64,000 nt of DNA from a virus, in IMG/VR virus record IMGVR_UViG_3300026488_000015, positions 1 through 64,000 of that record; one strand, given 5' to 3'. Positions 18,766 through 37,368 of this stretch are shown here, piece by piece. The notes below the pieces were generated by a model. That model did not search any database, was not told where the DNA came from, and saw only the letters and a program-made list of their open reading frames with translations. Numbering within the stretch: the first letter of the stretch is position 1; each line of letters begins with the position of its first letter. Position numbers and translations under genes: made by a program.

Positions 18766-18766
18766 A

Positions 18767-20066: not shown

Positions 20067-20074
20067 TATAAATA
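20067..20074 (+). promoter_or_regulatory. Late promoter TATAAATA (gp3)
   Basis: Exact match ~24 nt upstream of the 20098 ATG. Confidence 0.8.
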
Positions 20075-20097: not shown

Positions 20098-20559
20098 ATG
20101 AATAACATAAGAAATTTTCAAAGAGATACACAAATCGAATTCGGTACACGATTATTCGATGAGGTTATAACATATAATGTGCAGAATGTGCTGTTACCTG
20201 GAATCGATATGGATGATGCTGAAGCCCACACACGAGGTATCAAGGCGCTTATTCAAGGTGATTCAGTGGAATTTCAGGAATTGAGCTTAACGATTATCGT
20301 TGATGAAGAAATGAAAGTATGGAAAGACCTAATGAAAAAAATGTTCGAACATATAGAAATTCCTGATAATACTTTTACTCTTAATCCTGCTGACTCGTGG
20401 ATTACTATAAGAAATTCCAAAGGTGAAGATGTTATGACTGTGACATTTTATGAATCTCACATTACTACAATAGGTTCATTAAGCTACGACTCGACTGGTG
20501 AAGATGATGAACTCATTATGGACATTAGCATTCGTTATGATTACTTTTTAATCACTTAA
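20098..20559 (+). CDS. 3: Tail completion / tube terminator (T4 gp3-like)
   Basis: VQ.V.LPGI, GD..EF..L....IVDEEMK.W, F..S....IG.L.Y. Confidence 0.75.
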   Translation: MNNIRNFQRDTQIEFGTRLFDEVITYNVQNVLLPGIDMDDAEAHTRGIKALIQGDSVEFQELSLTIIVDEEMKVWKDLMKKMFEHIEIPDNTFTLNPADSWITIRNSKGEDVMTVTFYESHITTIGSLSYDSTGEDDELIMDISIRYDYFLIT

Positions 20560-21285
20560 TCGTATTCTTTCATTATACCTCATTAAGAATGAAGATAGTT
20601 CGTGTGGTACTGAATTATGTTTTGCTAATAAATCTTTAGGAAAACAAGCACCACCAAAACCCATCTTACCATCTGCCCCTACATTAGACATAATGCCGTT
20701 AGGTAATTTGCTGTATATCTGTGCCAATTTCCTCGTATCAGAATTAAATGTTTCTTGTACAAAATTCCAAAACATAACCTCATAAGCCCCGTGAATATTT
20801 CTAAGGTATTTAAACTCTATAGCCTCTTCCTGAGTACAAAATTCGACTTCATCTACAACTACATCGAAATCAGTATTAAAACACTCTAAGACTATATTAG
20901 CATAGTCTATACGACCGCCTAGAATAAGCAGTTTTTGTGTGCTGAAATCTTTGTAAGAGGATATTTGGTTCAGAAATTCAGGATTAAAAACTATATTAAA
21001 ATCTTTATTGTACATTTTGATGTTATCATATAATACTGTGCTCTTAATAACGATGATGCCATTATACCCTCTCACCTTTTCAAAAAATTCAACGAATGGT
21101 GTTATATTTTGTTTCTCGTTGTCATTCAATGAAGGAAGGCACACAAAAATTATATCCGTTTCAGATAAATCTGTTTCTTTGTGTTCTTCCATATATTTGT
21201 CAAAAATCAATACATCTTTTTTATCTATGATGCTGTTATAGACAGCCTGTCCCACGAAACCAAACCCAGCTATTCCTATTTTCAT
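20548..21285 (-). CDS. UDP-glucose/GDP-mannose dehydrogenase family (short form)
   Basis: GFGFVG, FVCLP, IKSTV, FNPEFL, GFGGACFPKD. Confidence 0.88.
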   Translation of the reverse strand: MKIGIAGFGFVGQAVYNSIIDKKDVLIFDKYMEEHKETDLSETDIIFVCLPSLNDNEKQNITPFVEFFEKVRGYNGIIVIKSTVLYDNIKMYNKDFNIVFNPEFLNQISSYKDFSTQKLLILGGRIDYANIVLECFNTDFDVVVDEVEFCTQEEAIEFKYLRNIHGAYEVMFWNFVQETFNSDTRKLAQIYSKLPNGIMSNVGADGKMGFGGACFPKDLLAKHNSVPHELSSFLMRYNERIRLSD

Positions 21286-21824
21286 TTCAAATCCTCTATT
21301 GGTATTCGTTCTTTGCCGAATAATCTGTTAATATTATATTTCTTTAATTCTGTTTTTACTAATGGTACCTCGTTGTTGTACGGGTAGCAGTAGCTATCAA
21401 CCGAGATATTATGCTCTTTGAAGGCTTCATTCATATCAGATAAATCTTTCTTTATTATATCATATATTTCCTTAATACCTTGTCGATGGTCTAAGAAAAA
21501 ATGATTATGAGAGTGCCCACCTATTTCTGCATTATCTGAATCGTGGATTTCTTTAATCTGGTCCCAATCCATATAAGCTGAGGTGTCACCATTATCGAAA
21601 AAATTCTTATGAGCCGCAGCACAAGCTATTACCTCAGGATTTTGTTCACCTTCTGAAATAATACCAGTACTCACAAAAAATATGAGAGGTATGCCTAGAC
21701 CCAAGAAAAAATCAAGGTTCAGGTACTGCGTGTACAAGCCATCATCGAAGGTAATCAAATCAAACGATGAAAAATCTACATCAAGCATCCAAGGATGGAC
21801 CTCGTGTATCATTAATGTTTTCAT
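21282..21824 (-). CDS. Polysaccharide deacetylase (CE4/NodB family)
   Basis: ITFDDG, GGHSHNH, YPY. Confidence 0.85.
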   Translation of the reverse strand: MKTLMIHEVHPWMLDVDFSSFDLITFDDGLYTQYLNLDFFLGLGIPLIFFVSTGIISEGEQNPEVIACAAAHKNFFDNGDTSAYMDWDQIKEIHDSDNAEIGGHSHNHFFLDHRQGIKEIYDIIKKDLSDMNEAFKEHNISVDSYCYPYNNEVPLVKTELKKYNINRLFGKERIPIEDLK

Positions 21825-22438
21825 CGTTTGAATACCAATGAAAATTCCTCTGCATACTGGTACCCAAAAATATTACCGATGTGCTTGTGATATTCTCTAA
21901 TGCCGTCTAGTGAGCCTATACCACCAGATTTTATTTCTGTACTGTACTCTGAACACATTTCTAGTTTTTTCTCGATGGTTTCTGTTATATCTACGCAGAC
22001 ATTAAATAACCTAGGCGTAAAATTCCACTCATTGGAACCAGTAACGGGGAAGCTGTATAGTTCTTTAACAGAACATTCTTTCCTTGGTCTACAAACGAGC
22101 TTTACACTCTCTGCTACTGTTTTATGGTCGCGGTGCATATCCGTATCAGAATTTGTATAGACAATATCAGGTCTGAAGGAATCTACCTCATTCTGGATGG
22201 TGTAGGTGACACCGTTAAAAAAATCCTCTAAAGTGAGGTCTTCGGCTTCATAAATCTTATACGAAAAACCTAACGAAAGCATATTTTTTGTGAATGCTTT
22301 CTCTCTAGCAACTCTATCTGCTTTAGCCCTACCTTTACAGAGAACGACAACCTTAATCTCACCTTTAAGTAAAGCGAGAGCTCCACCCATACCTATTTCA
22401 GCATCATCAAGATGAGCTACAACTATTAATGTTTTCAT
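21821..22438 (-). CDS. PIG-L/LmbE family deacetylase
   Basis: AHLDDAEIGMGG, D.H.DH, VDI....EKK, AEEF. Confidence 0.88.
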   Translation of the reverse strand: MKTLIVVAHLDDAEIGMGGALALLKGEIKVVVLCKGRAKADRVAREKAFTKNMLSLGFSYKIYEAEDLTLEDFFNGVTYTIQNEVDSFRPDIVYTNSDTDMHRDHKTVAESVKLVCRPRKECSVKELYSFPVTGSNEWNFTPRLFNVCVDITETIEKKLEMCSEYSTEIKSGGIGSLDGIREYHKHIGNIFGYQYAEEFSLVFKR

Positions 22439-23334
22439 TTAAGGCTCTTGATAATATCATCGACTGAATATTTAGGCTCGTAGAATGCTTTAATCTTATC
22501 GATACAAGGTTTTCTCTCGTAAATCTCGCCAAAATTAGAGCTAAAATCAACCGAATAATCCCGGTACTCGATGTCATCGGATATTTTGAGAGCTAATTCC
22601 TTGATGCTGATGGAATTTTTATCATTCCCAATATTGTAAATCTCATTATTGTGCTCATCATTCAACCCAAGAAGCGTAAGCATCTCAACGGCATCACGGA
22701 TATCACAAAATGTTCTCGTTTGTTCGCCATCACCGTATACCACTAACGGTTGCTGTTCTTTTTCATTTTTGATAAAATTGGGAAGCACCATACCGTAATC
22801 AGGTAGCTGTCCTGGTCCCACCACATTGAAAAATCTTACGATGACGCTTGGGAAAGAATAAGATTTTAATAAAAATTCCGACATAAGCTTAGCACAAGCA
22901 TACGACCATCGTGCTGTATCAGGAGAGCCTATTTTTAGCGTGTCCGTTTCTTTAGCATTATTCGTTTCGCCGTACACCTCTGAGGTACTAGCGAATACCA
23001 CTTTCTTCTGATACTTTTCAAAGAGAGGAAAGAGGTTATTATTGATACCGAAAGAATTCCTTAAGGTGCTTGATGGATTTTCATCGATGTATTTCACACC
23101 GACTGAGCCTGCTAAATGGTATATCAGGTCGGCTTCTTTGATGGCTGACTCGACATCAGTAGCAATATCCCCACCAAGGTCGCCTTGTATCATAATAATA
23201 TCAGAATCGATATTATTTTCAGTTCTTGAAGTGCTCATATTATCGATTACTGTGATAGTATGTTTATCCTCTTGTAATCTGGTTGTTAGGTTTCTACCTA
23301 TGAAACCTTGTCCGCCTGTTATTAAAATATTCAT
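22435..23334 (-). CDS. NAD-dependent nucleotide-sugar epimerase/decarboxylase (extended SDR, UXS/ArnA-like)
   Basis: GGQGFIG, ASTSEVYG, RWSYACAK, RFFNVVGP, GDG.QTR.F. Confidence 0.88.
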   Translation of the reverse strand: MNILITGGQGFIGRNLTTRLQEDKHTITVIDNMSTSRTENNIDSDIIMIQGDLGGDIATDVESAIKEADLIYHLAGSVGVKYIDENPSSTLRNSFGINNNLFPLFEKYQKKVVFASTSEVYGETNNAKETDTLKIGSPDTARWSYACAKLMSEFLLKSYSFPSVIVRFFNVVGPGQLPDYGMVLPNFIKNEKEQQPLVVYGDGEQTRTFCDIRDAVEMLTLLGLNDEHNNEIYNIGNDKNSISIKELALKISDDIEYRDYSVDFSSNFGEIYERKPCIDKIKAFYEPKYSVDDIIKSLK

Positions 23335-23368
23335 TTATTTCCTTTTGTTTATTATATCTAATTTCCTC

Positions 23369-24379
23369 TTAATAATAACTATCACGATAAAATATCGGGT
23401 CTGTAATTTTTTCGCCTTCTTCGGGTATTACTTTTATATCCATCTTGTTTTCTATCCCATCGCATAAGAAGAAATGCTTACATTCTTTGCACTCTTTTGG
23501 CTTTGTGTACGAATTATTTCTATTCATTTTAGCAGCATCGAATAGAGCCTTAATCGGGTCTTCTCTGTATTCTTCAGCTGTAAGATTGTAGTTATAGACT
23601 GCCATATTCCAATCGTACACATCATAGATGTGCTGATAATAATCGCACACATATTTTTCATACCCTTTCATATAGCAATAAGGAGTATAACGGACATTCA
23701 CTATACAGAAATCTTTCAATAAATCGATAGCTTCGTGGATTTTTGGTGTGACCTCGTTATAATCTATTGGAATCTGTTTACCGGCATCAGACCAGTAATT
23801 TAAGGTCAAAAAATTCACCTCAAAAACATTGAACTGCTTTACAATATCCACAAACCGTTTAAGATACATATAATTTTCGTGAGTAACGGTGCAGTTTATT
23901 CTTACAACAATACCTACATCATTAGCATTCTGAATAGCTTCGAGCATCCGTCTGAAACCACCTTTCTTTTGTACTAATGAATCGTGAAGCTCTTCACTCG
24001 AACCGTGTAAGCTAAATAATATTTCTTTGAGGCCGTGGTCTTTGGATTCCAGTGCGAATTCTTTGTCGGCAAATTTATATCCGTTGGATAATGTTGTAAC
24101 GCTTCGGAATCTCCCGTTACAGTAATCTAAAATTTTAAACCAGTCTTTGTGTATAGAGCTTTCTCCACCACTCAAATCAACCTCTTGGATACCACAATCG
24201 TAGAAATAATCTATTCTCTCTTTGATTATGTTAAATTCTGTTACATCGTTGAGGTGGTCGATATAATAGCAGAATTTACACTCGTAATTGCAGTGAGTGC
24301 CTGTATCTAGCTTAGCTCTTGTGCATATATTATTTTCTGTGTTGTGTTCTAATCTATTTGATACTAGATTGTAATTCAT
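23369..24379 (-). CDS. Radical SAM enzyme with C-terminal Cys cluster
   Basis: CNYECKFC, SGGE, FSLHG; C-terminal CKECKHFFLCDG. Confidence 0.9.
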   Translation of the reverse strand: MNYNLVSNRLEHNTENNICTRAKLDTGTHCNYECKFCYYIDHLNDVTEFNIIKERIDYFYDCGIQEVDLSGGESSIHKDWFKILDYCNGRFRSVTTLSNGYKFADKEFALESKDHGLKEILFSLHGSSEELHDSLVQKKGGFRRMLEAIQNANDVGIVVRINCTVTHENYMYLKRFVDIVKQFNVFEVNFLTLNYWSDAGKQIPIDYNEVTPKIHEAIDLLKDFCIVNVRYTPYCYMKGYEKYVCDYYQHIYDVYDWNMAVYNYNLTAEEYREDPIKALFDAAKMNRNNSYTKPKECKECKHFFLCDGIENKMDIKVIPEEGEKITDPIFYRDSYY

Positions 24380-24403
24380 TTATACCCTTTATTGCAAAAT
24401 ATA

Positions 24404-25000
24404 CTAATCATTGCTCCATACCCTCATATTATGAATATCTACATAACTACTGTAAGATAACAAAAAATCATCTTGTCGTTTTTTTGTGAGTTGGTTTAGC
24501 AATAACAGCCCTCTTGCTGCATCATCAGGTATCATATTGAAATGATACCCTAGAATAGTTTCTCTAATACCACTCATATCTCTACCGTCCCAAGCCATCT
24601 GCTTAAGCACCTCATAATCTTTTTTGTTATTTAGTAATATTGCTCCACCTTTTCCTATATTAATACATTTCTTCTGTTGGAAACTCAAACATTGTATTTC
24701 GTTGTTGTACATATTTTTTTTGAACCCAACAGCACAATCCCATATATTTGTGTTTGCTAGTTTATAAGTTTCATACCATTGAATATGTTCGAACGACGGA
24801 GTATAACCTGCGTGCATGATAGACATAGGTACACTAAGGTAAGTATTTTGGGGTATAGATATTATTTTAGTATCTGGTTTAAAATATTTTAAACATAATA
24901 ATATAGCATTAGTACAGCTATCAGTGAGCACAACAAATGGTGCTCCAGTAAACTCTGATAGTTCTCTCTCAAACATATCAATAAATTCATTATTATTCAT
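24404..25000 (-). CDS. DegT/DnrJ/EryC1/StrS PLP aminotransferase, short form (start revised to MNNNEF)
   Basis: FERELS...G, SCTNA, LSFQQKK...GKGGAIL; AAGGA SD before ATG at 25000. Confidence 0.82.
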   Translation of the reverse strand: MNNNEFIDMFERELSEFTGAPFVVLTDSCTNAILLCLKYFKPDTKIISIPQNTYLSVPMSIMHAGYTPSFEHIQWYETYKLANTNIWDCAVGFKKNMYNNEIQCLSFQQKKCINIGKGGAILLNNKKDYEVLKQMAWDGRDMSGIRETILGYHFNMIPDDAARGLLLLNQLTKKRQDDFLLSYSSYVDIHNMRVWSND

Positions 25001-25913
25001 TAGTATCCTTCGGGTAACGCTTAGTGAACTCACATTCAGTACAGTAATCAAGATGGCAAGTAATAGTTCGGTTCACATTATATAGAGTTTCATTAGAATC
25101 GTTTATATTTACTGGTGTTTTACTCCCAATACAATTATGTGTTTCTACTCTACCATCTAAATAAAAGAATAGAGTATCTGTTTCACACTGGAGGCCTTTT
25201 GTTTTGTATTTTGTTTTGTATATTTCATTGCAATCAAATTCTTCACCATTTATGATTATTATACCATCGCTCTTAAAGCCAAAACCATCATTTGTAAATT
25301 TTTTGACTTCTACTGCATCTATAAATGGTGCAAAGTTTATAGGGAAACCTTCTCTTGTTAGCATAGTACTAACAAGAGATAATTTAGGGGATAATTTAGG
25401 GGTATTATAATCCAGTAAAAGCCTAATATAGTCAATATTATCTTTAAATCTTATTATATTTCTTAATGTTACTGTCATCTGTTTTTTATCAATAACAGTA
25501 TAATGGAAGCTGGGTGTAATAACTATTTTTAGATGTTTATATTTCTCTAAAATATAAGCTATATTTTCGGTTTTTAACATATTAGATAAAATCATAATCT
25601 TATTGTATTTTACATCAAGTTTGCTAAACTCCCCTAAGAAAAAATCTAAAGTATCCACTGTCATAAACGGTTCGCCACCTTCTACTGAAATGAGATTATC
25701 AAATTCGCTTCTTCTGTTAAAACTATATTCAATAAAATTAACTAATCTCACCAAAACTTCTTTGGAAGCGGTTAAACCATTATACATATTCTTATTTTGG
25801 TAGCAGTAGGGGCATTTCAAATTGCAAATATCATTTATCATAAAACCTATTATATTATTAGGTCTAAGGTCTTTTAGAATGTAAGTGTTATTATTTATAT
25901 CACTTGTTACCAT
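24993..25913 (-). CDS. Radical SAM enzyme (Twitch-like C-terminus)
   Basis: CNLKCPYC, GGEP, SFH, KGLQC...C...CHLDYCTEC. Confidence 0.88.
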   Translation of the reverse strand: MVTSDINNNTYILKDLRPNNIIGFMINDICNLKCPYCYQNKNMYNGLTASKEVLVRLVNFIEYSFNRRSEFDNLISVEGGEPFMTVDTLDFFLGEFSKLDVKYNKIMILSNMLKTENIAYILEKYKHLKIVITPSFHYTVIDKKQMTVTLRNIIRFKDNIDYIRLLLDYNTPKLSPKLSLVSTMLTREGFPINFAPFIDAVEVKKFTNDGFGFKSDGIIIINGEEFDCNEIYKTKYKTKGLQCETDTLFFYLDGRVETHNCIGSKTPVNINDSNETLYNVNRTITCHLDYCTECEFTKRYPKDTNE

Positions 25914-25925
25914 TTTTGGCTCCTG

Positions 25926-26855
25926 TTATTCTGTGTAATTGTAATTTCTAGCTGTACCAGTAATACATATAGTTTCATCAAGTACTGGTACTATTTCGTG
26001 TTCGATTAAATCATCTATTTCTTTCTTGACTTTGCTTACGCTTTCTATTGGTATGTGTATGCTTTTTTCTATAGCAATATCAGTCCCGTATAGGTTGAAC
26101 AATATTTTATACTTTTTGGGTATATCCATTCTTTCTAATACTGAATAATAGTCATAATGGTAAAATGAGTAATCTACAAAGGTTATATCTTTATTTATAT
26201 ATGCATTAGTATAGTTTAGTTCTCTAGCATCAACTATAAATCTGAACTTCTTCTCTAAAAGGTATATAGCTATTTCTTCGCAGAAATTCTGAAGTCTATA
26301 ATTTATGACTATATTTTTATGAGCGATACCTTTTTTAGCTATATTTATGCTTTCTTCCAACCATAATCTAGCAAAATCTTGATTCTTTGTGTAAATAAAA
26401 AAAGTGTCATAATGTTCTTTGTAAGATTCATCTAAAAATTTAGTAAAACAGTATGTGAGCATCGATTCTTCTACACTTTCGGGTGTTTTGAAAACATAAA
26501 CATCTTCATTATTGATTTTAGGTAACGATGACACGCAGTAAACATCGGGGTCTAAAAATACATAACCATCTAAGTCTGGATACTCATTAACTACAAAATT
26601 AAATACTTCAGGCATCAGCAAGAAAAAACACTCTGTTTTGTAGTAAAATTTGTTGTTTGTAAGCTCTATATTAAGTAGAGTTACATTATCGTATTTTTCA
26701 ATAAATCTCACAAAAATATCTGGTAGGACTGAATTATTGTGATTGACTACAATAATTCTATGTTCTTTATCAAAATTATTTTTTATAGACTCTAAAGCTA
26801 CTACAAGTTGAGGTATAGTATTTGGGTGGGCCTCTATCGGGAATATGAAGGTCAT
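25926..26855 (-). CDS. Putative GT-A glycosyltransferase
   Basis: LESI, YVFLDPDVY (DxD), EE.A, HY motifs. Confidence 0.55.
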   Translation of the reverse strand: MTFIFPIEAHPNTIPQLVVALESIKNNFDKEHRIIVVNHNNSVLPDIFVRFIEKYDNVTLLNIELTNNKFYYKTECFFLLMPEVFNFVVNEYPDLDGYVFLDPDVYCVSSLPKINNEDVYVFKTPESVEESMLTYCFTKFLDESYKEHYDTFFIYTKNQDFARLWLEESINIAKKGIAHKNIVINYRLQNFCEEIAIYLLEKKFRFIVDARELNYTNAYINKDITFVDYSFYHYDYYSVLERMDIPKKYKILFNLYGTDIAIEKSIHIPIESVSKVKKEIDDLIEHEIVPVLDETICITGTARNYNYTE

Positions 26856-26857
26856 TG

Positions 26858-27769
26858 CTAATCCTTTGTTTTATAATGGTCAAGTGAACTTGCCCATAAA
26901 CAGGAGTTCTCAAATGGGCAAATAATAGGTTTAGTCATATCATATGCTTTGAAAAAATCTAAGTGCGTAAAAATATTCATTGGTTCAAATAAAGTACACA
27001 TCTGTTTTACTCTACCTGAACGGCACTCGATTGTGAAGAATATATAGTAGCATTTCCACCCATAAGTGTCCATAGGTAGCATATCGTGAGTGTATAAATC
27101 ATAATCATTCCATTCTACGCCAAAGTTATCTATGTATTCTTTGGTATTATTTAATTTCATTGTATTTAGTATATAATTGTTAGACTTGAACTTAGAGTTG
27201 ATATAAACAGGCTTAATATTATAATTTTTGTTGTGTTCTTCGGCAAAGTTTTGCATATCAATAATATCATTGTAATATTTCTTGTTTGGGTGTATCATTA
27301 TGTTTAGTTCTACATTCTTTATGGTTAAAAGTTTTTCTTTGAACTCTAAATCTTTTAGTGTATCTGCGTGCCAAGAAATATGATAAACTATATCAGGATT
27401 GATATAGTTTATTTTGTGTAGTTTCTCTGGACTTAATTGTAAATTAGTGTTAATATGCAAATCTTTAATTTTTCCTTCATCTATGTATTTTTGAATGTAT
27501 TCTACAATATAAACGATTTTGTAGTGTAATGTGCATTCCCCACCACTCAAACAGATAGATACTGGATGAGGTATCTTCGCTAGTTCATCGATTACAGCTA
27601 GAACTTCTTTAGTAGAACTAAATTTACCCCAAGTTTCTGAATCATTTCTCATATAACAATAACTACAATGCATATTACATATTTCTGTGATTAACAATTC
27701 AAAAATAAGAAAGTCGTGGTCCTTAATTGCACCTTTACTAGAAAACGATGTTATGTCTTTGTTATTCAT
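26858..27769 (-). CDS. Radical SAM enzyme (start revised to MNNKDI)
   Basis: CNMHCSYC, SGGE, SWH, GWKC...C...CPFENSC; GAGGA SD. Confidence 0.88.
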   Translation of the reverse strand: MNNKDITSFSSKGAIKDHDFLIFELLITEICNMHCSYCYMRNDSETWGKFSSTKEVLAVIDELAKIPHPVSICLSGGECTLHYKIVYIVEYIQKYIDEGKIKDLHINTNLQLSPEKLHKINYINPDIVYHISWHADTLKDLEFKEKLLTIKNVELNIMIHPNKKYYNDIIDMQNFAEEHNKNYNIKPVYINSKFKSNNYILNTMKLNNTKEYIDNFGVEWNDYDLYTHDMLPMDTYGWKCYYIFFTIECRSGRVKQMCTLFEPMNIFTHLDFFKAYDMTKPIICPFENSCLWASSLDHYKTKD

Positions 27770-29994: not shown

Positions 29995-29996
29995 AC

Positions 29997-30863
29997 TTAT
30001 TTCTTTTTGTTGAATTTATAATAATCAGAACACCTGCAGCAATCAACTATACAAGTATTATATTGTAATAATTTTTCTGTTGTTATCATAAGCCCCATAT
30101 TTGCACTCGTACAACTATCATAGAAATTGCCGTTAGGCGATATTCTATAAGTAGTTTGCCTACATTGATAGCCTTTGAACTTATGTAGATTCTGTGAGTG
30201 TATTTCAAATTTCTTGAATGTTTTTGTTGTGCCGTCAGAAAAAGCATAAGGTATATCTACTTCATCAGCACCCTCTACAAAATATCTGTTAAAACTCTCT
30301 GGTATTCTATTTTCGTTTTTCCAACCAGTCGTATCTGATAAGAAAGCTGGGCTACTAGGGAACTTAGTATTTTCCAAAACAATTTTACATTTATCAAGGT
30401 AATCATCCAACAAAGAGACTGATATTTTAAGACCGAAAGTTGGAGTAAAATCATATAATTTCTCCATAAATACAGTATCGTATTCAGGATGGTAGGATAT
30501 CATCATATCAAATTTGTCATTTAGCTTATTAAATTGCTCGTAATATTTGTTTGGTTTAGCAAAATTAGTTATTAACTCGGTATTAGTGCAATTAGGTATA
30601 TTTGTTAGTGCCTCTAATATCTCATATAAATCTTCGTGTAGTGTAGGTTCACCACCAAGCACCAAAATAGTAAAAGGCATATCTATTTTTTTGAGTTTAG
30701 CTATTACAAATTTCCACATCTTGTTTTTTTGAATATATGCATCTGGAACTTTATTGCTAGCAAATACATTACAATATGAACATTGGAACTGGCAATAATC
30801 AGTAATAACCCAATTAAATTCTAACACTTTGGGGTCTTTATACCCGGCCTCAATCACTTCCAT
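29997..30863 (-). CDS. Radical SAM enzyme
   Basis: CQFQCSYC, GGEPTLH, SYHPE, FKGYQC...C...CIVDCCRC. Confidence 0.88.
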   Translation of the reverse strand: MEVIEAGYKDPKVLEFNWVITDYCQFQCSYCNVFASNKVPDAYIQKNKMWKFVIAKLKKIDMPFTILVLGGEPTLHEDLYEILEALTNIPNCTNTELITNFAKPNKYYEQFNKLNDKFDMMISYHPEYDTVFMEKLYDFTPTFGLKISVSLLDDYLDKCKIVLENTKFPSSPAFLSDTTGWKNENRIPESFNRYFVEGADEVDIPYAFSDGTTKTFKKFEIHSQNLHKFKGYQCRQTTYRISPNGNFYDSCTSANMGLMITTEKLLQYNTCIVDCCRCSDYYKFNKKK

Positions 30864-30872
30864 TATATATCC

Positions 30873-31466
30873 TTATACTAGTATTGTAAGTTTCGGTGTC
30901 TTACTATGATTAAATAAGTTCACTAAATCTGATTTATCTACATTCATTTTATCTTTCACTATGCTATAAATTTTAAACATATTCTTTTTTGATAAGCCAA
31001 CTACATTGTCACCTATATCAGCACCAGTTACTCGTATGATTTTATCATTGTTGGTATCCAAGAACTGACCTAAGTTATGTATGTTATTATCAGTAACTAC
31101 AACCATATAATCTATATTTTTGAAATCAATAATAGGTACATACGCATCAAGATGCTCAGAGCAATGATAATATATATCGTTTATTTCAGTTAAGTAGTCT
31201 TGGTAGTTCTTCATAAACAAACCATTAGTATTTACAGCTATTATACATTCTTTCTTCTTCAGTTCCCTTAGAGTATAAATTAGTATATCTTCAGATACAA
31301 GGCCTGGTTCACCACCACTTAAAGAAACCATAGAACCTTTTTCTATGCTATTAAGGTGTTCTTTTATTGAATCAAAAGTAATCGTAGGTTTATTGTGAGT
31401 ATCCACCACACAAAAGTCACAAAACCAATTACATCTGTGTGTTAGCATTATACAATATTCTTTCAT
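30873..31466 (-). CDS. Radical SAM enzyme (short, core only)
   Basis: CNWFCDFC, SGGEP, NTNG. Confidence 0.85.
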   Translation of the reverse strand: MKEYCIMLTHRCNWFCDFCVVDTHNKPTITFDSIKEHLNSIEKGSMVSLSGGEPGLVSEDILIYTLRELKKKECIIAVNTNGLFMKNYQDYLTEINDIYYHCSEHLDAYVPIIDFKNIDYMVVVTDNNIHNLGQFLDTNNDKIIRVTGADIGDNVVGLSKKNMFKIYSIVKDKMNVDKSDLVNLFNHSKTPKLTILV

Positions 31467-32359
31467 ATAATACTCTTTATAATCTCTATGATACTATCAT
31501 CTTTTTTGAGTTCTATTTTGCTCATTGTTTCTAAATCCTTTATCCGCGCTTCTAATCCTTTATCTATGTAATCAACATCGTATTGGACTCCCAACCCGTA
31601 GTGTTTGCATTCTGCAATAAATCTTGGTGAGCAATCGAACTGCCTTTCTATTGGCGTATAGATGTATTTATTGAATTCAGAAAAAATGTCTTTGACTGGC
31701 ATTTCTATTTGTGTGATTCTATCATCTGTAAATGTTAATTTATTTTCTGAATTTGTTAGTACAAGGAAATTATCGTTGTTTTTCTCTAGTAGTGCTTTAT
31801 AATAATCGTTATTTAATGCCCTACAATTTTTTGTGGCGTATATTAATGTTCTATTTTTGTGTGTCGGGACTTCTTTGAATCTACTAAACAATATTTTTTT
31901 GATGTATTCGATAGAATTTACTTTAGCTCTCTCATAGATTCTGTGGTCTTGTAGAACATAGACATTTTCTTTAGTGTTTTCTTTAATGGGTAGATGACCA
32001 CAGCTGAATAAGAACATATTATCGTATATTATTTTTGTTTCATTTATCTTGTTTACGGCACCATCAGTAAATAGAATATTGTTACAAAGCACCACGAGGG
32101 GTTGCCTACTGAAAACAATTTTATCTGTTATTTGTTTAATTTCGTTATCAGTAAAATTGTATTTGCTTTTGATAGCTACTACATATTCTTCTAATGTTAT
32201 TTTCTCTGCATTTAATATGCAAACATTGAAGTGGTCTTTCAGTAGCCAAAAGTACTCGATGACTTCAAAAGTGTGACCACATATACCTTGGTCGTTGTTT
32301 TTGTGCCAAGAATATGTCAATACTAAATCGTATTGTTTCAGATTTATTATCTTGCTCAT
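31463..32359 (-). CDS. Hypothetical protein, possible GT-B glycosyltransferase (paralogue 1)
   Basis: G..GHTFEVIEYF and DCSPRFIAECKHYG shared with the next two ORFs. Confidence 0.5.
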   Translation of the reverse strand: MSKIINLKQYDLVLTYSWHKNNDQGICGHTFEVIEYFWLLKDHFNVCILNAEKITLEEYVVAIKSKYNFTDNEIKQITDKIVFSRQPLVVLCNNILFTDGAVNKINETKIIYDNMFLFSCGHLPIKENTKENVYVLQDHRIYERAKVNSIEYIKKILFSRFKEVPTHKNRTLIYATKNCRALNNDYYKALLEKNNDNFLVLTNSENKLTFTDDRITQIEMPVKDIFSEFNKYIYTPIERQFDCSPRFIAECKHYGLGVQYDVDYIDKGLEARIKDLETMSKIELKKDDSIIEIIKSII

Positions 32360-32367
32360 CTAGTTCC

Positions 32368-33147
32368 TTAATACGCTATAAAATCTTTTGTCACCTTGTA
32401 CTCAGCATCTATTTGGAAGATACTAGCACCCATTTCCATACAAGCTGTATACCGTTCATTGACTGAATCGTTTGTGTCTTCAGCATTGAGGACAACGAGG
32501 CTATTACCAAAATAGAATGCTTCAGGAATTATTCTGTTATTTCGTTCAAGATGCCTAGTGTGGTAGTAGATTATTTCTTTAAAATTGAAAATATCCAAAT
32601 CTTTATTGAAATCTTTGTACACGACATCATATTTTGCTACTTCTTCTATTGTGCTTTTATCGATAGAACCAATACCAAGAGCTAGATGAGAACAAAAGGT
32701 CTTATCTAGGTGTGGTGTCTTAGGTTTCATAAATTGAAAACCTATTTTAAATCGTTCTTTAATATTAAACTTTTGATAATCGTAAAAACCATATACAGAA
32801 TCTTGCTCTCTAGCATTATGGTCACCATCATTAGAATACAGAAAAATTTTATCTATCTTCTGTGTAAAGTTTTGTATTTTATTATAAGTAAAGGTATCGA
32901 GTACTAATGCCTTTTTTGTTACACTCTTAAGCAAATCGATAGGCTTTATCTTTACTACATTATCAAGATTTATTATATCATACTTTTCCTTAATAATACC
33001 TTTAATGACATCTATATCACCATCAAAAATGACGCATAACTGTACATCTTCGTACTTGGAAATATATAAGAAATGTTCTATACAGTAAAATAATATACCA
33101 GTCATAATGAGGTTTGGGTTTACATAGATTATAATTTTTGAATTCAT
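32368..33147 (-). CDS. Hypothetical protein, possible GT-B glycosyltransferase (paralogue 2)
   Basis: TGILFYCIEHF and ERNNRIIPEAFYFG. Confidence 0.5.
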   Translation of the reverse strand: MNSKIIIYVNPNLIMTGILFYCIEHFLYISKYEDVQLCVIFDGDIDVIKGIIKEKYDIINLDNVVKIKPIDLLKSVTKKALVLDTFTYNKIQNFTQKIDKIFLYSNDGDHNAREQDSVYGFYDYQKFNIKERFKIGFQFMKPKTPHLDKTFCSHLALGIGSIDKSTIEEVAKYDVVYKDFNKDLDIFNFKEIIYYHTRHLERNNRIIPEAFYFGNSLVVLNAEDTNDSVNERYTACMEMGASIFQIDAEYKVTKDFIAY

Positions 33148-33148
33148 A

Positions 33149-33868
33149 CTAATCCTTAAGGAAATCTTGTATCATTGAATCGCTAGCATCTAAGATGAAT
33201 TCTTCTATCGGGGATTGTAACCTATCTTGAATGCTATCATCAAAATCTAGTTTATTGTCTATTATTAGTTCTTTGTTGAAATATCTTGCTTCAATAACAA
33301 ATCTATTATTAGTATCAAAACCATTATGTACATACTTCCAAGTTTTGTATTCCATCAAATTCATAAAGGTATTAGGTTTTTTTGCGTCCTCTCCATTTAT
33401 TTTATGCATATCTAAAGATGAACGAAAAACCTCATATTTTTCTTCATATTTCTTATGGTATTTTAGCCCTAATTTTAGTCGCTCTCTTCTGTTGAATTTT
33501 TGATAATTATAATACCCGTAAGTGTTTGTAGATACCTCATTATTACCGTTTTCAGAATACAAGAAAATACTATATCTGATTAATGGTTTACATTTAATAT
33601 AGGTATTGGTATCTAATATCAAAACTTTGTCGTTTATTATTTTAAGTAGGTTTGTGTAATTTGAAAATATTATGAATTCGTTTAGTTTTTTATCGTAGTT
33701 ATACTTGGCACTAAACACTTCCATAATTTTACTGAAAGTGGCTTCATCAGTTCTCAATATAAGTTGAGTAGGTTCTATCTCGTTAAGAACCAAAAAGTAC
33801 TCCATAGCATAGAAAAGTGTACCGTTAATGATTTTTTTAGGCATTACATAATATAGTACACTTTTCAC
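33149..33868 (-). CDS. Hypothetical protein, possible GT-B glycosyltransferase (paralogue 3)
   Basis: NGTLFYAMEYF and DTNNRFVIEARYFN. Confidence 0.5.
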   Translation of the reverse strand: MKSVLYYVMPKKIINGTLFYAMEYFLVLNEIEPTQLILRTDEATFSKIMEVFSAKYNYDKKLNEFIIFSNYTNLLKIINDKVLILDTNTYIKCKPLIRYSIFLYSENGNNEVSTNTYGYYNYQKFNRRERLKLGLKYHKKYEEKYEVFRSSLDMHKINGEDAKKPNTFMNLMEYKTWKYVHNGFDTNNRFVIEARYFNKELIIDNKLDFDDSIQDRLQSPIEEFILDASDSMIQDFLKD

Positions 33869-33876
33869 AAAAACTC

Positions 33877-34485
33877 TTATCTATTCATTTTATCGTAAGC
33901 AATATAAAAATCACCGAGAATTTTATCAACCTCTTCTGTATCTTTTGCATTAATGATTTTCTTCACAAAATCAGCACACATATTCCCAAAGTCAATAGAT
34001 GTAGTTACTTTATCTAAGAGTATTAAGTAGCTTTCTAGTTTTTCTATGATTGCTTCATCATCTTTTTCAATAATTTCAATATATTTTTCTTCACGATTAC
34101 TATTAGTGATTACAAACCCTTCGGCAGTAAGTTCATTGTTTAAAACAGTAAAAGAAACAATATCTAAAGATGTCATATTTGCCATATTATATGACATCTT
34201 CTTATTTACTCTCATCATATTAATTTTCTTATATACTTCAAATTCATCTACTGCTTCATCAGAAATATTAATATCCCCTGGAAGTGCTTCATCAGTTATC
34301 ATTTCTTTATTAATAGTGATGGTCTTCCCTTCTGAAAGACCATCACTAATCAACTGATAACTATTATAAGAAAGCTTAATAACTTTATCCTCTCTATTTG
34401 CTAAACCGTCAAACGAACTTTTAGTAGTACCAGTCACTAAATAATGAGTACCTCTATCTTCTACTATTGCTAATTCAAATATCAT
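33877..34485 (-). CDS. Hypothetical protein downstream of the Cys-rich gene
   Basis: AAGGAG SD; C-terminus IINAKDTEEVDKI loosely resembles fibre-chaperone/DUF4376 endings. Confidence 0.65.
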   Translation of the reverse strand: MIFELAIVEDRGTHYLVTGTTKSSFDGLANREDKVIKLSYNSYQLISDGLSEGKTITINKEMITDEALPGDINISDEAVDEFEVYKKINMMRVNKKMSYNMANMTSLDIVSFTVLNNELTAEGFVITNSNREEKYIEIIEKDDEAIIEKLESYLILLDKVTTSIDFGNMCADFVKKIINAKDTEEVDKILGDFYIAYDKMNR

Positions 34486-34509
34486 TTTAAATCTCCTTTA
34501 ATTTTATTT

Positions 34510-35010
34510 TTATGCATAGTTACAACCACAATTACCGTGACAAGTACACACGCTGTGGCCGCCGCAGTCACTATTACATATACAATCAGTTCTAAGCGAA
34601 TTGTATAATGCTAACATATCTGATGCTAATTTACTTGCATAAACAATGCTACCAGCAGAGACGGCACCAGTCGAACCGTGCCCTGTGCCGTTTAAATCAA
34701 CAATCAATTTATTAAAATCGTTTGCATAAACAGTATCACCTACAGCGATTCCCGCTGTAGCAGTTGTACTAAAATTATAGTTACCATTCTGATTCCATCT
34801 AGCAATTTCATTAATTGTGTTTGCTCTTAATAATTCTAAATCTGATGCGTTAATTATATTCCCAGCAGTTGCATTTGATAATGCAACTACTCTATTAGAA
34901 GCACAAGATGCTCTATTATACGAGCAACTATCAGTAGTACAATTACTAGTACAATGCGAAGGAGTACACCACCCCGTAGATGTTGCCGCCGTCCCTGAAC
35001 CTACTGCCAT
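34510..35010 (-). CDS. Cys-rich protein, candidate radical-SAM substrate or virion appendage
   Basis: 12 Cys in terminal clusters; three G..(I/V).A...L repeats; AGGAGG SD; directly after rSAM/SPASM gene. Confidence 0.75.
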   Translation of the reverse strand: MAVGSGTAATSTGWCTPSHCTSNCTTDSCSYNRASCASNRVVALSNATAGNIINASDLELLRANTINEIARWNQNGNYNFSTTATAGIAVGDTVYANDFNKLIVDLNGTGHGSTGAVSAGSIVYASKLASDMLALYNSLRTDCICNSDCGGHSVCTCHGNCGCNYA

Positions 35011-35011
35011 A

Positions 35012-36130
35012 TTATTTTCCTCCTAAAAGTTGCGAGAGAGCTCTATCTACTTTTCCAAACGCTTGATAGTAACCACATAAACCGTGAACTTGGTTATCTA
35101 ACCATTTATCTTCGTAAGAATCCTTTTGTGAAGCAGCATAAGATGAAGTAGGACAAACAAAACAAGTAGTTGCTACACAACTTTTGCATTGCTCGTTTGT
35201 CTTAGCTATCATCTTACTAAACTTCTCTCTATCTAACTTATTTATATCACCGTCAAGCGATAAAAGTTTGTGGTTCTCTTTATCATCAAGATATAAAGCA
35301 CCGTGGCACGGGTAGAAATTACCATCTGTGTCAAGTATAGTCATATTCTTACCAGAAGAACAAGTAAATCTAGTATCATCTCCTCTGTACCAACTGAATA
35401 GCATATGACCAAATTCTGAATAAAAGTCTAATTCTAGTGCACTTATTTCTCTAATTGCTTGTTCAAAATAAGGCAAATAAGTATTAGGGTCTTGAAGTTT
35501 TGTATGGTAATCAAGAGTAGGTGAATATCTAACATAGGTCGTTTCGCTATCATATTTTCTTTTTAAATCTCTAAATTCTTTCCATACAGTAACCATATTA
35601 TGCACCTCAGATAAAGGGAGTGTGCTTTTTAGGCTTAATGATTTTAGTCCTGCTTTACTCAACCAATCGAAAGTTTTAAGTACTTTATCGGCTGTTGATT
35701 CGCCTTTATGGTCTATACGGAATTTATCGTTAATTATTCTACCATCATACGATACTTGTACTCGTAGCTTAGAAGCATCAACACTATTAATGAATTTTTC
35801 CATAGTGCTTTGGTTAAAAGCATTAGTATATAAGTGATAATCAATATTATCATAATCGTGGAAATAGTTCATAAGCTCAGTCATAACATAGTTATTAAGA
35901 GTAGGTTCTCCACCCCAAAAATCTACACCAAGAGTATCATATTCTGCTTTAAACCAATCAGACGCTAAGGTTTCTTTAATTTTTTCTATATATTGAGGTA
36001 TATTTTGGTTTACTTGTTTATTATCAACAGCTTTTTCACCTTCAAAACAATATGTACAAGCCATATCGCAAGTCGTTACTGTGGTAATTTCAAAATTGAA
36101 CCCTCCTTTTGTCTGTATTCTATCACTCAT
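35012..36130 (-). CDS. Radical SAM/SPASM maturase
   Basis: CDMACTYC, WGGEPTL, SYDG; SPASM C.SG...DG.FYPC...CKSC....C..CP...C. Confidence 0.9.
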   Translation of the reverse strand: MSDRIQTKGGFNFEITTVTTCDMACTYCFEGEKAVDNKQVNQNIPQYIEKIKETLASDWFKAEYDTLGVDFWGGEPTLNNYVMTELMNYFHDYDNIDYHLYTNAFNQSTMEKFINSVDASKLRVQVSYDGRIINDKFRIDHKGESTADKVLKTFDWLSKAGLKSLSLKSTLPLSEVHNMVTVWKEFRDLKRKYDSETTYVRYSPTLDYHTKLQDPNTYLPYFEQAIREISALELDFYSEFGHMLFSWYRGDDTRFTCSSGKNMTILDTDGNFYPCHGALYLDDKENHKLLSLDGDINKLDREKFSKMIAKTNEQCKSCVATTCFVCPTSSYAASQKDSYEDKWLDNQVHGLCGYYQAFGKVDRALSQLLGGK

Positions 36131-36402
36131 TACATTTTCCCTTTCATTGATAGAATATCATCTATTATGGTTTGTAATTCAGCTTCTTCCATTTTATCTG
36201 CTTCAAGTTTTATCTCTTCTAGCATTTTATTACCCATATCCGCCAATATTGCACTCATTTCAGTAGATACTGGTAGCAACTCTACTGATGCCTCCATCAG
36301 TTTTGTAGAAGCCGCAAATAGATGAGCGTTTCTATCATTCTTAGATAAGATAATTTTCTCTACTCTATTAGCAGAATTCTCGTTTAGTGTTTTATTAATC
36401 AT
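36130..36402 (-). CDS. Small helical hypothetical protein between two SPASM enzymes
   Basis: AAGGA SD; coupled to the next gene. Confidence 0.7.
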   Translation of the reverse strand: MINKTLNENSANRVEKIILSKNDRNAHLFAASTKLMEASVELLPVSTEMSAILADMGNKMLEEIKLEADKMEEAELQTIIDDILSMKGKM

Positions 36403-36411
36403 TATGTTCCT

Positions 36412-37368
36412 TTAAACCCAGCTAACTAAATCAGCAATGAGGTCTTTATTTAATTTATTTATATTGCCTACAAGTATACCGTAGATAAACACATACATTT
36501 CGCATAGATATTCTATCGGTTTTTGGTTTTCTAGCTGTTGTATCAGACAACCTTTCTCGCAATATTGGTTTACGCTACAACTCTTACAGAAATCTTGTAT
36601 TGTTTCTGAATTTACTTGCGAATTAAAAATATCTTCTTTATCAAAATATCTGTAACAACTAAAAAATTTATTATCGTGAAATGCTAGAACAGTATCCCCA
36701 GCACCACAATCTTTTGGTGAGTATCCTTTTTTATGGTATCTAAGTATATGAGTTAAAAAATGAATGAAAAATGCTGGTATAGTATTTGTTGATGTAGCAT
36801 AATCCATTAATCCAGAAATATCTTCTTTGGCTTGCTCTATATTATCTTTATGCCATATACCGATATCCCTGACAATAGTAATCCCAGGATTAACTCCAAA
36901 CATATTGTACAATAATTTATGATTATCTTTCAACCCAAACATTGTACCATTCCACATAGCGTGTATTTTCAAATCATCGATAGTTCTAATAAGCTCTATT
37001 AAAGCCGGATGGAAGTCTTTTCCTCGCTCTGATTGCCAAATACCATCGTGAGATACAGAAACAGTCACTTTATTGTCGTTGAATATTTTGATTATGCCCG
37101 GTGCTAGTAGCAACCCATTAGTCATAATATTAGTTTTGAACCCATTACTATTACTGTACTCTATGAATTGTATGACTAAAGGCATTTGCATTAAAGGTTC
37201 TCCGCCCATAATATCAAAAATGTAATTTTCGTTTTCCTCGTATATATCTTCAAATTCTTTCTTAAATGTATCGAATGATATTTTTTCCGTTGATTTTTTG
37301 TCTATTATATAACAGTAAGAGCAGTCTAAATTGCACCCTTCTGATAATATCAGCGATATATGCTTCAT
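36412..37368 (-). CDS. Radical SAM/SPASM maturase
   Basis: CNLDCSYC, GGEPL, TNG, SHDG; CGAG...C...CKSC....YC.KGC...C. Confidence 0.9.
   Translation of the reverse strand: MKHISLILSEGCNLDCSYCYIIDKKSTEKISFDTFKKEFEDIYEENENYIFDIMGGEPLMQMPLVIQFIEYSNSNGFKTNIMTNGLLLAPGIIKIFNDNKVTVSVSHDGIWQSERGKDFHPALIELIRTIDDLKIHAMWNGTMFGLKDNHKLLYNMFGVNPGITIVRDIGIWHKDNIEQAKEDISGLMDYATSTNTIPAFFIHFLTHILRYHKKGYSPKDCGAGDTVLAFHDNKFFSCYRYFDKEDIFNSQVNSETIQDFCKSCSVNQYCEKGCLIQQLENQKPIEYLCEMYVFIYGILVGNINKLNKDLIADLVSWV

Follow-up and report, generated by a model that had tools for sequence, protein, structure and literature searches.

The IMG/VR virus record IMGVR_UViG_3300026488_000015 spans 146.5 kb and is estimated to be 68% complete. 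Its first 64 kb, here called the window, contain an island of 22 contiguous, co-oriented open reading frames (ORF1 to ORF22; 20548-37368, minus strand, 90-372 aa each, ~17 kb in all), whose extent and ends agree with those of the initial annotation of this DNA. We propose, as a quite possible though not a probable reading, that the island constitutes a late, wholly cytoplasmic maturation system for a self-encoded virion fibre-type protein, the Cys-rich ORF19. The two radical S-adenosylmethionine (radical-SAM) enzymes with a SPASM domain, ORF20 and ORF22, would install thioether-type (ranthionine- or sactionine-like) links between the tail cysteines of ORF19 and nearby Asn, Asp or His residues, with help from ORF21 and/or ORF18. 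Glycosylation by ORF15-17 and ORF12 would take place directly in the cytoplasm, on ORF19 or on the large fibre next to it. A short nucleotide-sugar dehydrogenase (mini-Ugd), a UXS/ArnA-type decarboxylase, a DegT aminotransferase, the radical-SAM enzyme ORF5 (rSAM5), and PIG-L and CE4 deacetylases would supply or tailor an amino-pentose or amino-sugar, and five or six twitch-type radical-SAM paralogues would add further variable tailoring steps. Reduction-proof cross-links of this type would suit a sulfidic, anoxic habitat. With somewhat less confidence, it can be hypothesised that in tailed phages of anaerobic or microaerobic hosts a fibre may serve as a substrate akin to RiPPs (ribosomally synthesised and post-translationally modified peptides), which radical-SAM, pyridoxal phosphate (PLP) and sugar enzymes furnish with SPASM-welded thioether Cys rings and an amino-sugar glycan. 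SPASM protein maturation and virion glycosylation are both known kinds of process; what would be new is their variant in a phage fibre island.

A Cys-rich fibre-type protein beside two SPASM enzymes

ORF19 is composed of an N-terminal Cys tail, a helical core (residues 38-143) and C-terminal CxC[N/H] hexad repeats. Its family comprises ten relatives in IMG/VR and at least 200 metagenomic clusters. The Peptidase_S74 domain (PF13884, cut-off 22 bits) was detected in three homologues at 31.5, 25.6 and 40.9 bits, and it is carried by most of the best 120 listed of these at least 200 clusters. Peptidase_S74, a C-terminal intramolecular chaperone that cleaves itself at a conserved Ser...Lys motif, is typically found in trimeric endosialidases, tail spikes and tail fibres. 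The invariant C-terminus of the ORF19 family consists of four CxC[N/H]xx hexads that lead directly into the S-D-x-R-L-K cleavage motif. Because the window's ORF19 and a few other members end at this cleavage position, their mature product would be equivalent to that of the S74-bearing relatives; assignment to the Peptidase_S74 group holds for the body of the family, not for the C-terminus of the window's copy. The initial annotation had recorded no peptidase, which is correct for the window, whereas most relatives of ORF19 bear the self-cleaving domain. At one further locus (L019:3233-3965), gene calling gave two overlapping ORFs, of 175 aa for the Cys-rich body and 86 aa for the S74 chaperone; they part at the predicted cleavage site, which may reflect a frameshift or a natural split. 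In the monomer model of ORF19, the core has a predicted local distance difference test score (pLDDT) of ~90, and both Cys-rich tails are disordered, with values below 50; the model suggests that the tails are accessible. Searches of PDB and BFVD with the model yielded no match other than some weak ones to rudivirus proteins (E of at least 0.03, Z of at most 6.8). Within the tails, the acceptor-type residues Asn, Asp and His are conserved to the same degree as the cysteines, and the CxC spacing of the N-terminal tail is not regular.

The SPASM domain was defined by the C-terminal seven- or eight-Cys pattern CX9-17GX4C ... CX2CX5CX3C ... C of TIGR04085 (cut-off 27 bits). The seven-Cys pattern is complete in both ORF20 and ORF22, in line with the two full SPASM proteins of the initial annotation, and ORF20 scores 26.4 bits with the model. 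The two proteins resemble PapB, QhpD, anSME and the SCIFF maturase along their entire length (5.9e-24 for ORF20 with PapB), with scores well short of the respective cut-offs. ORF20 aligns with residues 106-413 of CteB (5wgg) at 4.6e-9, and ORF22 matches CteB at 3.1e-8. The equivalog threshold of the PapB-family ranthipeptide maturases (NF047865, at least 340 bits) exceeds the scores of ORF20 (84.9) and ORF22 (62), and the resemblance of the pair to this family would be one of fold and clade only. Likewise, the pair scores 55.6 and 59.2 bits against the QhpD equivalog (TIGR03906, at least 453 bits), and no dehydrogenase subunits of a QhpC/QhpA/QhpB context were found in the island.

A precedent for such chemistry on a protein is the SPASM enzyme CrpC, which installs ranthionine thioethers on CrpA, a 29-kDa Cys-repeat protein of Methanococcus voltae, in a paper that makes no mention of phages (PMC13692751, 2026). 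There, as in the island, the SPASM gene adjoins a gene for a Cys-repeat protein with a folded N-terminal part. However, CrpC and CteB possess an N-terminal RiPP recognition element (RRE), which ORF20 and ORF22 lack, the alignment of ORF20 starting only at CteB residue 106. The ranthipeptide/SCIFF systems (PapB/PapA freyrasin, CteB/CteA, NxxcB/NxxcA) provide both the top NCBIfam match (PapB) and the top solved relative (CteB) of the SPASM pair, and the tails of ORF19 resemble their substrates in being Cys-rich with Asn or Asp at fixed short distances. Unlike these systems, the island has no short leader-core peptide and no exporter, the only "protease" in most relatives is the intramolecular S74 domain, the product would remain on a ~17 kDa protein, and the scores stay below the equivalog cut-offs. 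With respect to QhpD/QhpC, ORF20 matches the QhpD model over its full length, but with only 55.6 of the 453 bits. The island differs from both CrpC/CrpA and QhpD/QhpC in that the candidate substrate is of the phage fibre type and has an S74 follower. From the thioether-maturase matches and the CrpC precedent, we infer that ORF20 and ORF22 would cross-link the ORF19 tails. No published description was found of a pairing of SPASM enzymes with a Cys-tailed fibre in phages.

The arrangement of these genes is conserved. The relatives compared are ten IMG/VR loci (L002-L011) and three further contigs. The initial annotation had staked its proposal on conserved linkage in other phages, and a common order was found in all 13: a fibre-like gene, mini-Ugd, SPASM, a helical protein of 65-90 aa, SPASM, the Cys-rich protein, the ORF18 family, one ORF16/17-type gene, the ORF15 family, rSAM5, and ORF14-type and other radical-SAM paralogues. 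The ten-gene core runs from mini-Ugd through the short radical-SAM enzyme, and in the relatives the fibre-like genes lie upstream of the cassette. In the window mini-Ugd has joined the remaining sugar genes at the far end, and in the most divergent locus (L010) mini-Ugd, ORF22-type and ORF16/17-type genes were not detected. The island had no match of near-identical DNA in the 50,697 phage records that served for all phage-wide homologue searches. Because the ORF19 family is S74-bearing and holds a conserved place between the SPASM genes and the glycosyltransferase-like and sugar genes, we propose a fibre-type target. An intracellular target, most plausibly a virion appendage, had already been put forward in the initial annotation; the SPASM-flanked ORF19, a member of an S74-type fibre family, fits this proposal, and it is ORF19, rather than the adjacent 2296-aa tail fibre, that is the likeliest target.

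Two small acidic proteins accompany this centre. The ORF18 family is present at all ten IMG/VR loci, always immediately after the Cys-rich gene. Its model (pLDDT 86.7) consists of a small beta domain and a helical bundle, and no convincing PDB match was found for this fold (Foldseek E >0.02; VIA Z of 9.7 on generic helical bundles only; template modelling (TM) scores in Atlas of at most 0.40); ORF18 is a candidate chaperone or adaptor. A small ORF of the ORF21 type occupies the same position in nine relatives and in the three further contigs, and is a candidate recognition or chaperone partner. In one relative (contig of P0102), an IscA/HesB-type Fe-S_biosyn gene (PF01521, 110 aa, locus 6451-6783) lies directly before mini-Ugd; the phage concerned apparently supplies the radical-SAM enzymes with an iron-sulfur cluster carrier of its own.

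The phage bears the marks of a T4-like myovirus, namely gp46/47-type nuclease genes, a gp55-type late sigma factor, a baseplate wedge and the 2296-aa tail fibre. Its nearest cultured relatives are the Campylobacter Eucampyvirinae and some Vibrio phages, with only ~28% identity in the baseplate wedge protein, and a hydrothermal-vent metagenome run that contains the same DNA may indicate its origin. Adjacent ORFs of the island are spaced by -59 to +34 nt, with no terminator-like site within its intergenic gaps. T4-type TATAAATA boxes are located 20-30 nt upstream of most structural genes, including one at 44383-44390, 27 nt before the ATG of the large fibre gene; in the gap upstream of ORF22, the exact TATAAATA box is absent and only TGTAAATA was seen. 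Because the island genes are tightly packed, with no intergenic terminator, behind a fibre gene driven by a late promoter, they would be co-expressed with the fibre late in infection.

Radical-SAM and sugar enzymes of the island

Radical-SAM proteins were recognised by a CxxxCxxC motif near the N-terminus together with the PF04055 gathering score of 29.5 bits. The motif occurs in nine island proteins, the number given by the initial annotation; eight of them pass the cut-off, and ORF7 falls short at 25-26.5 bits. All nine PF04055 matches of the 146.5-kb record fall in the island (Table 1). Outside the SPASM pair, a shorter five-Cys twitch-like tail is present in ORF7, 9, 10, 11 and 13 and a six-Cys tail in ORF5, and ORF14 has none. 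When compared with solved structures, the twitch-type paralogues gave generic core matches only (MoaA, PqqE, SkfB) and none to BtrN. ORF11 is a paralogue of ORF10 (40% identity over 60 aa), and paralogues of ORF14 are found in one to three copies in eight of the ten relatives, none being found in L010 and L011. Started at its sole ATG, ORF10 would have the CxxxCxxC motif at residue 2; upstream of this ATG, 19 further codons remain open (28527-28583). These would encode a plausible first beta strand (…FNYYINT-M-C…) and include no ATG, GTG or TTG. ORF10 may have a non-canonical start or a truncated N-terminus.

The most conserved radical-SAM enzyme of the island is rSAM5, with 51-61% identity in nine of the ten relatives and 44% in the most divergent, L010, compared with 25-48% for the neighbouring genes. 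Its homologues form 644 clusters at E<=1e-10, all with generic names, and the closest solved structures are SkfB (1.4e-10) and BlsE (5e-7). Because its conservation is far above that of its neighbours, rSAM5 probably acts on a small invariant substrate, for example a sugar nucleotide.

Table 1. Features of the island and of the adjacent tail-fibre gene, with positions in the window
Feature	Coordinates	Strand	Evidence and remarks
ORF1, mini-Ugd, nucleotide-sugar dehydrogenase, 245 aa	20548..21285	-	PF03721 27.7 bits, PF00984 23.1 bits
ORF2, CE4 polysaccharide deacetylase/deformylase-type	21282..21824	-	PF01522 32.7 bits, over cut-off
ORF3, PIG-L/LmbE-type de-N-acetylase	21821..22438	-	PF02585 49 bits; BshB1 model 38 bits, below cut-off
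ORF4, short-chain dehydrogenase/reductase (SDR) of UDP-glucuronate decarboxylase (UXS/ArnA C-terminal) type	22435..23334	-	PF01370 161.9 bits
ORF5 (rSAM5), radical SAM with six-Cys auxiliary tail	23369..24379	-	PF04055 61.1 bits
ORF6, short DegT/DnrJ/EryC1-type PLP aminotransferase, 215 aa	24404..25051	-	PF01041 65.2 bits
ORF7, radical SAM with five-Cys twitch-like tail	24993..25913	-	CNLKCPYC at residue 30; PF04055 25.4 bits (below 29.5)
ORF8, 309-aa protein	25926..26855	-	no Pfam, NCBIfam or PHROG match
ORF9, radical SAM with auxiliary Cys tail	26858..27802	-	PF04055 52.7 bits; motif at residue 42
ORF10, radical SAM with five-Cys tail	27762..28526	-	PF04055 51.4 bits; open frame 273 aa
ORF11, radical SAM with five-Cys tail	28556..29389	-	PF04055 40.6 bits
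ORF12, soluble GT2 (GT-A) glycosyltransferase	29353..29994	-	PF00535 31 bits, over cut-off; no hydrophobic segment
ORF13, radical SAM with five-Cys tail	29997..30863	-	PF04055 32.9 bits; homologues in L005, L010, L011
ORF14, minimal 197-aa radical SAM without auxiliary Cys tail	30873..31466	-	PF04055 31.7 bits
ORF15, GT-B (GT4-like) fold protein	31463..32359	-	Atlas structure search; phrog_24441 at 1.6e-33
ORF16, ORF15-family paralogue (GT-B-like)	32368..33147	-	profile-profile comparison
ORF17, second ORF16-type copy	33149..33868	-	33% identical to ORF16; relatives with single gene here
ORF18, acidic conserved partner	33877..34485	-	phrog_25260; directly after Cys-rich gene
ORF19, Cys-rich fibre-type protein, 166 aa, 12 Cys	34510..35010	-	alignments A1 and A2
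ORF20, radical SAM/SPASM of peptide/protein-modifying clade	35012..36130	-	no N-terminal RRE domain
ORF21, helical acidic protein between SPASM genes	36130..36402	-	conserved, 65-90 aa
ORF22, second radical SAM/SPASM	36412..37368	-	PF04055 49 bits; canonical CX2CX5CX3C SPASM pattern
2296-aa tail-fibre protein	37465..44355	-	tail-fibre PHROGs; directly upstream of island

The Ugd of the initial annotation is indeed a member of the dehydrogenase family, with the N-terminal NAD motif GxGxxG and the catalytic Cys within GGxCFPKD, but its C-terminal UDP-binding domain is absent. It covers positions 71-274 of the 413 of TIGR03026 and scores 66 against a cut-off of 189.8, and it thereby falls outside UDP-glucose 6-dehydrogenase as defined by three domains and the catalytic Cys. 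The length of mini-Ugd is kept at 243-248 aa in the IMG/VR relatives (none being detected in L010) and is 256 aa in the Campylobacter Firehammerviruses. As both lengths are conserved in relatives, it was rejected that these two short genes, Ugd and DegT, might be pseudogenes. The SDR, DegT, CE4 and PIG-L assignments were borne out by Pfam or NCBIfam matches, DegT being short. In ORF6, the DegT protein, an SFxxxK-like Lys motif is present, a 204-aa homologue in L003 is 49% identical, and translation probably begins at the internal ATG at residue 18. The best NCBIfam matches of ORF4 are UDP-4-keto-pentose/UDP-xylose synthase (1.6e-31) and ArnA (4.8e-28), both below cut-offs, and the protein contains the motifs STSEVYG (T-S-E) and YACAK (YxxxK).

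Two GT-A glycosyltransferases had been annotated; ORF12 was verified as a GT2 enzyme, whereas ORF8 matches nothing and has no homologue in L002-L011. The three possible GT-B proteins find support. GT4-like GT-B glycosyltransferases are marked by two Rossmann-like domains, a C-terminal motif for nucleotide-sugar binding and PF00534 or PF13692. The Atlas model of ORF15, which has no Pfam match, superposes on GT4 clusters with TM scores of 0.70 and 0.69, and ORF15 is on this structural ground a probable glycosyltransferase. ORF16 and ORF17 are its distant paralogues: the ORF15 and ORF16 families (alignments A3 and A4) were matched by hhalign with a probability of 93.4% (E 2.5e-7, 228 columns), and a conserved R-[FI]-I-x-E-[AC] motif can be seen. 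In agreement with the initial annotation, no membrane-like segment was found in any of the 22 island proteins; they are all soluble, and domain searches revealed no flippase, GT-C enzyme or transporter among them. A hydrophobic stretch in the CE4 protein was considered as a membrane anchor and rejected, as it falls inside the catalytic domain match. The CE4 and PIG-L families act on already-transferred sugars. Because the glycosyltransferases (GT-A and GT-B) are cytoplasmic, the dehydrogenase lacks a nucleotide-binding domain, deacetylases are present and lipid-carrier or export machinery is not, we suggest that sugars would be transferred directly in the cytoplasm and tailored on a soluble macromolecule.

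Two known systems may be compared with this sugar set. The pathway for 4-amino-4-deoxy-L-arabinose (Ara4N), Arn, shares with the island the families of Ugd, the ArnA-C-type decarboxylase, DegT, GT2 and the CE4 deformylase type. The island nevertheless has no ArnT, ArnE/F, flippase, formyltransferase or membrane anchor, and its scores remain below the equivalog cut-offs, so that its amino-pentose (Ara4N-like) make-up would be a resemblance at family level only. In mycobacteriophages, cytoplasmic phage glycosyltransferases encoded near structural genes decorate virion proteins (Freeman et al, 2023, cited in PMC12801897). Those phages are not known to have radical-SAM enzymes, a sugar-tailoring pathway or a Cys-rich substrate, and glycosylation in the island is predicted.

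Counterparts in cultured Campylobacter phages

Campylobacter group II phages are T4-like myoviruses that carry 11-12 radical-SAM genes together with carbohydrate genes, both unexplained (PMC2853527, PMC3322345). The Firehammervirus members named here are CP220, CPt10, CP21, IBB_35 and CJLB-13. Homologues of at least ten island genes were found in Firehammerviruses; the initial annotation had mentioned multiple radical-SAM genes in Campylobacter myoviruses. In tblastn comparisons with CJLB-13, identities were 46% for ORF5, 40% for ORF2, 35% for ORF14 and ORF15, 32% for ORF1, 29% for ORF4, 26% for ORF20, 24% for ORF22 and ORF3, and 43% over 49 aa for ORF18. Homologues of the twitch paralogues are also present in CJLB-13, and the homologues are spread over five or six loci. 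The window's phage, a T4-like myovirus with rSAM5, ORF15, ORF18, mini-Ugd and SPASM orthologues, thus possesses a radical-SAM/sugar set of the Firehammervirus type. Among the phage records, homologues of ORF15 were restricted to Firehammervirus. The same holds for ORF5 among named phages, with two additional weak partial matches in fecal-metagenome phage records, and ORF20 has one weak partial match in such records beyond Firehammervirus.

The order of rSAM5, SDR, PIG-L and CE4 genes is retained in these phages, as is a run of ORF18-like, mini-Ugd, small helical and SPASM genes beside tail and baseplate genes. In this run, the ORF18 homologue (of the same PHROG, phrog_25260) comes after tail-assembly and baseplate-hub genes, and downstream of it lie a QueE-like radical-SAM gene, mini-Ugd, a small helical ORF and an ORF22-like SPASM gene; the 113-aa ORF after mini-Ugd resembles ORF21 by eye. 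The two settings differ in that the Firehammervirus genes are scattered over their several loci, whereas those of the island and of the 13 metagenomic contigs form one block, and the protein identity between them is only 24-46%. Within the island, the GC content is 29-31% in the variable middle (24000-34000, with the twitch-type radical-SAM and glycosyltransferase genes), as opposed to 33-37% in the flanks and conserved ends; the low-GC middle recalls the "interchangeable five-radical-SAM module" described for CP220 and CPt10.

A homologue of ORF19 was found neither by tblastn against the phage records nor by a profile search of CP220 with alignment A1. Four genes upstream of the ORF20 homologue, however, a 534-aa protein (CP220 gp140) is encoded in which CDCNYCT is repeated six or seven times and which also has two C[AS][STA]NR motifs and additional CxC[ND] motifs. 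Among six-frame ORFs, the C[AS][STA]NR motif is limited to ORF19 in the window's genome and to the 534-aa protein in CJLB-13. The CxC[ND] motif is likewise unique to ORF19 in the former, and CJLB-13 has 18 copies of it in the 534-aa protein versus single copies in three other ORFs. On these sequence grounds, the 534-aa protein may be regarded as a motif-level analogue of ORF19. In phage IBB_35, the product of gene 3-9 (1605 bp, 60.3 kDa) was detected in purified virions by tandem mass spectrometry with 2.6% coverage (PMC3322345 Table S2); we take gene 3-9, matched by length and position only, to be the gene of the 534-aa protein. The homologues of ORF18, mini-Ugd and SPASM were not found in IBB_35 virions (PMC3322345 supplements).

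The radical-SAM genes of the group II phages have had no explanation since 2010, the genome authors having suggested only a metabolic boost to the host. If the proposed fibre maturation is true, it would explain these 11-12 orphan genes. The presence of the same gene families in one operon around a fibre-type protein leads to a concrete hypothesis for the cultured phages CP220 and IBB_35, namely that 3-9/gp140 would be cross-linked and perhaps glycosylated. It would also bring RiPP-style radical chemistry and sugar tailoring to virus particles, forming a new class of post-translational chemistry in virions, and would offer a clue to how fibres keep their cross-links under conditions that disulfides do not withstand. 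A variable, exchangeable cassette of this kind could possibly shape the host range, stability and immune recognition of Campylobacter biocontrol phages. The island is furthermore a source of compact radical-SAM, mini-Ugd and mini-DegT enzymes.

CJLB-13 additionally encodes two small proteins that consist nearly throughout of CxxC repeats, one of 171 aa with 46 Cys (L014:30490-31005) and one of 141 aa with 26 Cys (L016, record 140938-141363). The latter lies ~0.9 kb upstream of the rSAM5 homologue of CJLB-13 (140938-141363 vs 142232), and no counterpart of these proteins was found in the 146.5 kb of the record studied here.

Alternative explanations and flanking genes

Several observations weigh against maturation of ORF19 by the island. 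The window's ORF19 itself is without an S74 domain. The radical-SAM matches lie far below the family cut-offs and assign no class of chemistry, thioether or otherwise, and the late timing of the island is predicted from promoter and gene layout. The sugar and twitch half appears to be tied to the fibre, as a shared target, only by operon structure and co-retention, and in Firehammervirus the sugar and twitch-enzyme genes are scattered. The conservation of rSAM5 points to a small-molecule substrate, which would fit a metabolite pathway equally well. An hhalign comparison of the ORF19 family with CP220 gp140 gave a probability of 17%, which is not significant. Finally, the tip of T4 gp37 contains HxH iron sites, and the CxC repeats of a trimer could bind metal in a like manner.

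This last point leads to an unlikely alternative, a trimeric fibre in which the Cys tails of ORF19, at three CxC per layer, serve as structural sites for metal or iron-sulfur binding. The tails would then not be modified by radical-SAM chemistry, and the action of the SPASM pair, like that of the other island genes, would be confined to sugars or to another target. The four CxC[N/H] hexads stand immediately before a trimerising S74 chaperone and resemble the periodic HxH metal sites of the T4 fibre tip, and the lack of structure of the tails in the monomer model is expected for folding that depends on oligomers or metal; the authors of the CrpA study also weigh metal binding for their protein (PMC13692751). 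On the other hand, the Cys-rich gene is flanked in all 13 contigs by a pair of SPASM enzymes from the peptide/protein-modifying clade, together with a small partner (except that the ORF22-type gene was not detected in L010), and neither the equal conservation of Asn, Asp and His nor the irregular CxC spacing of the N-terminal tail favours metal layers. To a comparably low degree, it is conceivable that the island makes a free small molecule, such as an amino-sugar resembling aminoglycoside or nucleoside antibiotics or a cofactor, directed at the host or at competitors, with the Cys-rich protein and the SPASM pair as a separate module. The combination of GT-B, PIG-L, DegT and twitch radical-SAM enzymes is the palette of 2-deoxystreptamine aminoglycosides, and the highly conserved rSAM5 has among its solved relatives BlsE of blasticidin biosynthesis. 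Moreover, a cyanophage trio of DegT-like, SkfB-like radical-SAM and amidinotransferase genes has been termed "antibiotic genes" (PMC12801897), and each radical-SAM cluster of CP220 is accompanied by an amidinotransferase (PMC2853527). Yet the island contains no scaffold-forming enzyme (cyclase, nonribosomal peptide synthetase or polyketide synthase), exporter or self-resistance gene. Its proteins are all soluble, its genes are packed as one unit with the fibre cassette in every contig, its mini-Ugd has no nucleotide-binding domain, and its deacetylases belong to families that act on already-transferred sugars.

A DNA target had been offered in the initial annotation as an alternative. On this reading, which is distinctly improbable, the phage DNA would be hypermodified as happens in other T4-like and in thymidine-hypermodifying phages: a modified base would receive sugar from the GT-B enzymes, and its tailoring would fall to the radical-SAM and PLP enzymes. 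The T4 DNA glucosyltransferases are GT-B enzymes, radical-SAM and PLP enzymes act in thymidine hypermodification, and Campylobacter phage DNA is heavily modified. The 146.5-kb record, at ~68% completeness, nonetheless contains no thymidylate-synthase-type hydroxymethylase (PF00303) or TGT/DpdA (PF01702), which leaves the DNA alternative unsupported, and the island has no DNA-binding or kinase component; it lies among late structural genes, with a fibre-type protein at the conserved centre of the cassette. The least credible of the explanations, and a very improbable one, is that the enzymes remodel a surface or flagellar glycan of the host during infection, for instance in superinfection exclusion. 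The SDR and DegT genes do resemble LegB and LegC of flagellin-sugar pathways as well, but nonulosonate synthase, CMP-transferase, lipid-carrier enzymes and membrane proteins are all lacking from the island, and its conserved linkage is to fibre genes.

Some neighbouring features of the island may be mentioned. A tail-tube-like ORF of 153 aa at 20098-20559 (phrog_45 at 5.7e-18) is on the plus strand, the minority strand, and has its own TATAAATA box at 20067-20074. It converges on the island with a 12-nt overlap with the island's last gene, and is consistent with the extra tail-tube paralogues reported for Campylobacter phages. Directly downstream of the island (17629-20005) lie the gp55-type late sigma factor, whose 412 aa far exceed the length of T4 gp55, and a calcineurin-like phosphoesterase. 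The latter forms the SbcD/gp47 partner to an SbcC-like gene located at 15336-17075. On the other side, the C-terminus of the 2296-aa fibre (37465-38000) has an A-R-Y-A-D-V-A-E-N-Y stretch near its end, and the fibre of one relative gave a weak match to the Peptidase_G2 autoproteolytic domain (16.6 bits, below cut-off); the large fibre may possess a self-cleaving chaperone of another kind. The rSAM5 sequence of the window (P0131, 23369-24379) is also listed on a contig of 331,651 bases, and the actual genome of the phage may greatly exceed the size suggested by the 146.5-kb record and the CheckV estimate.

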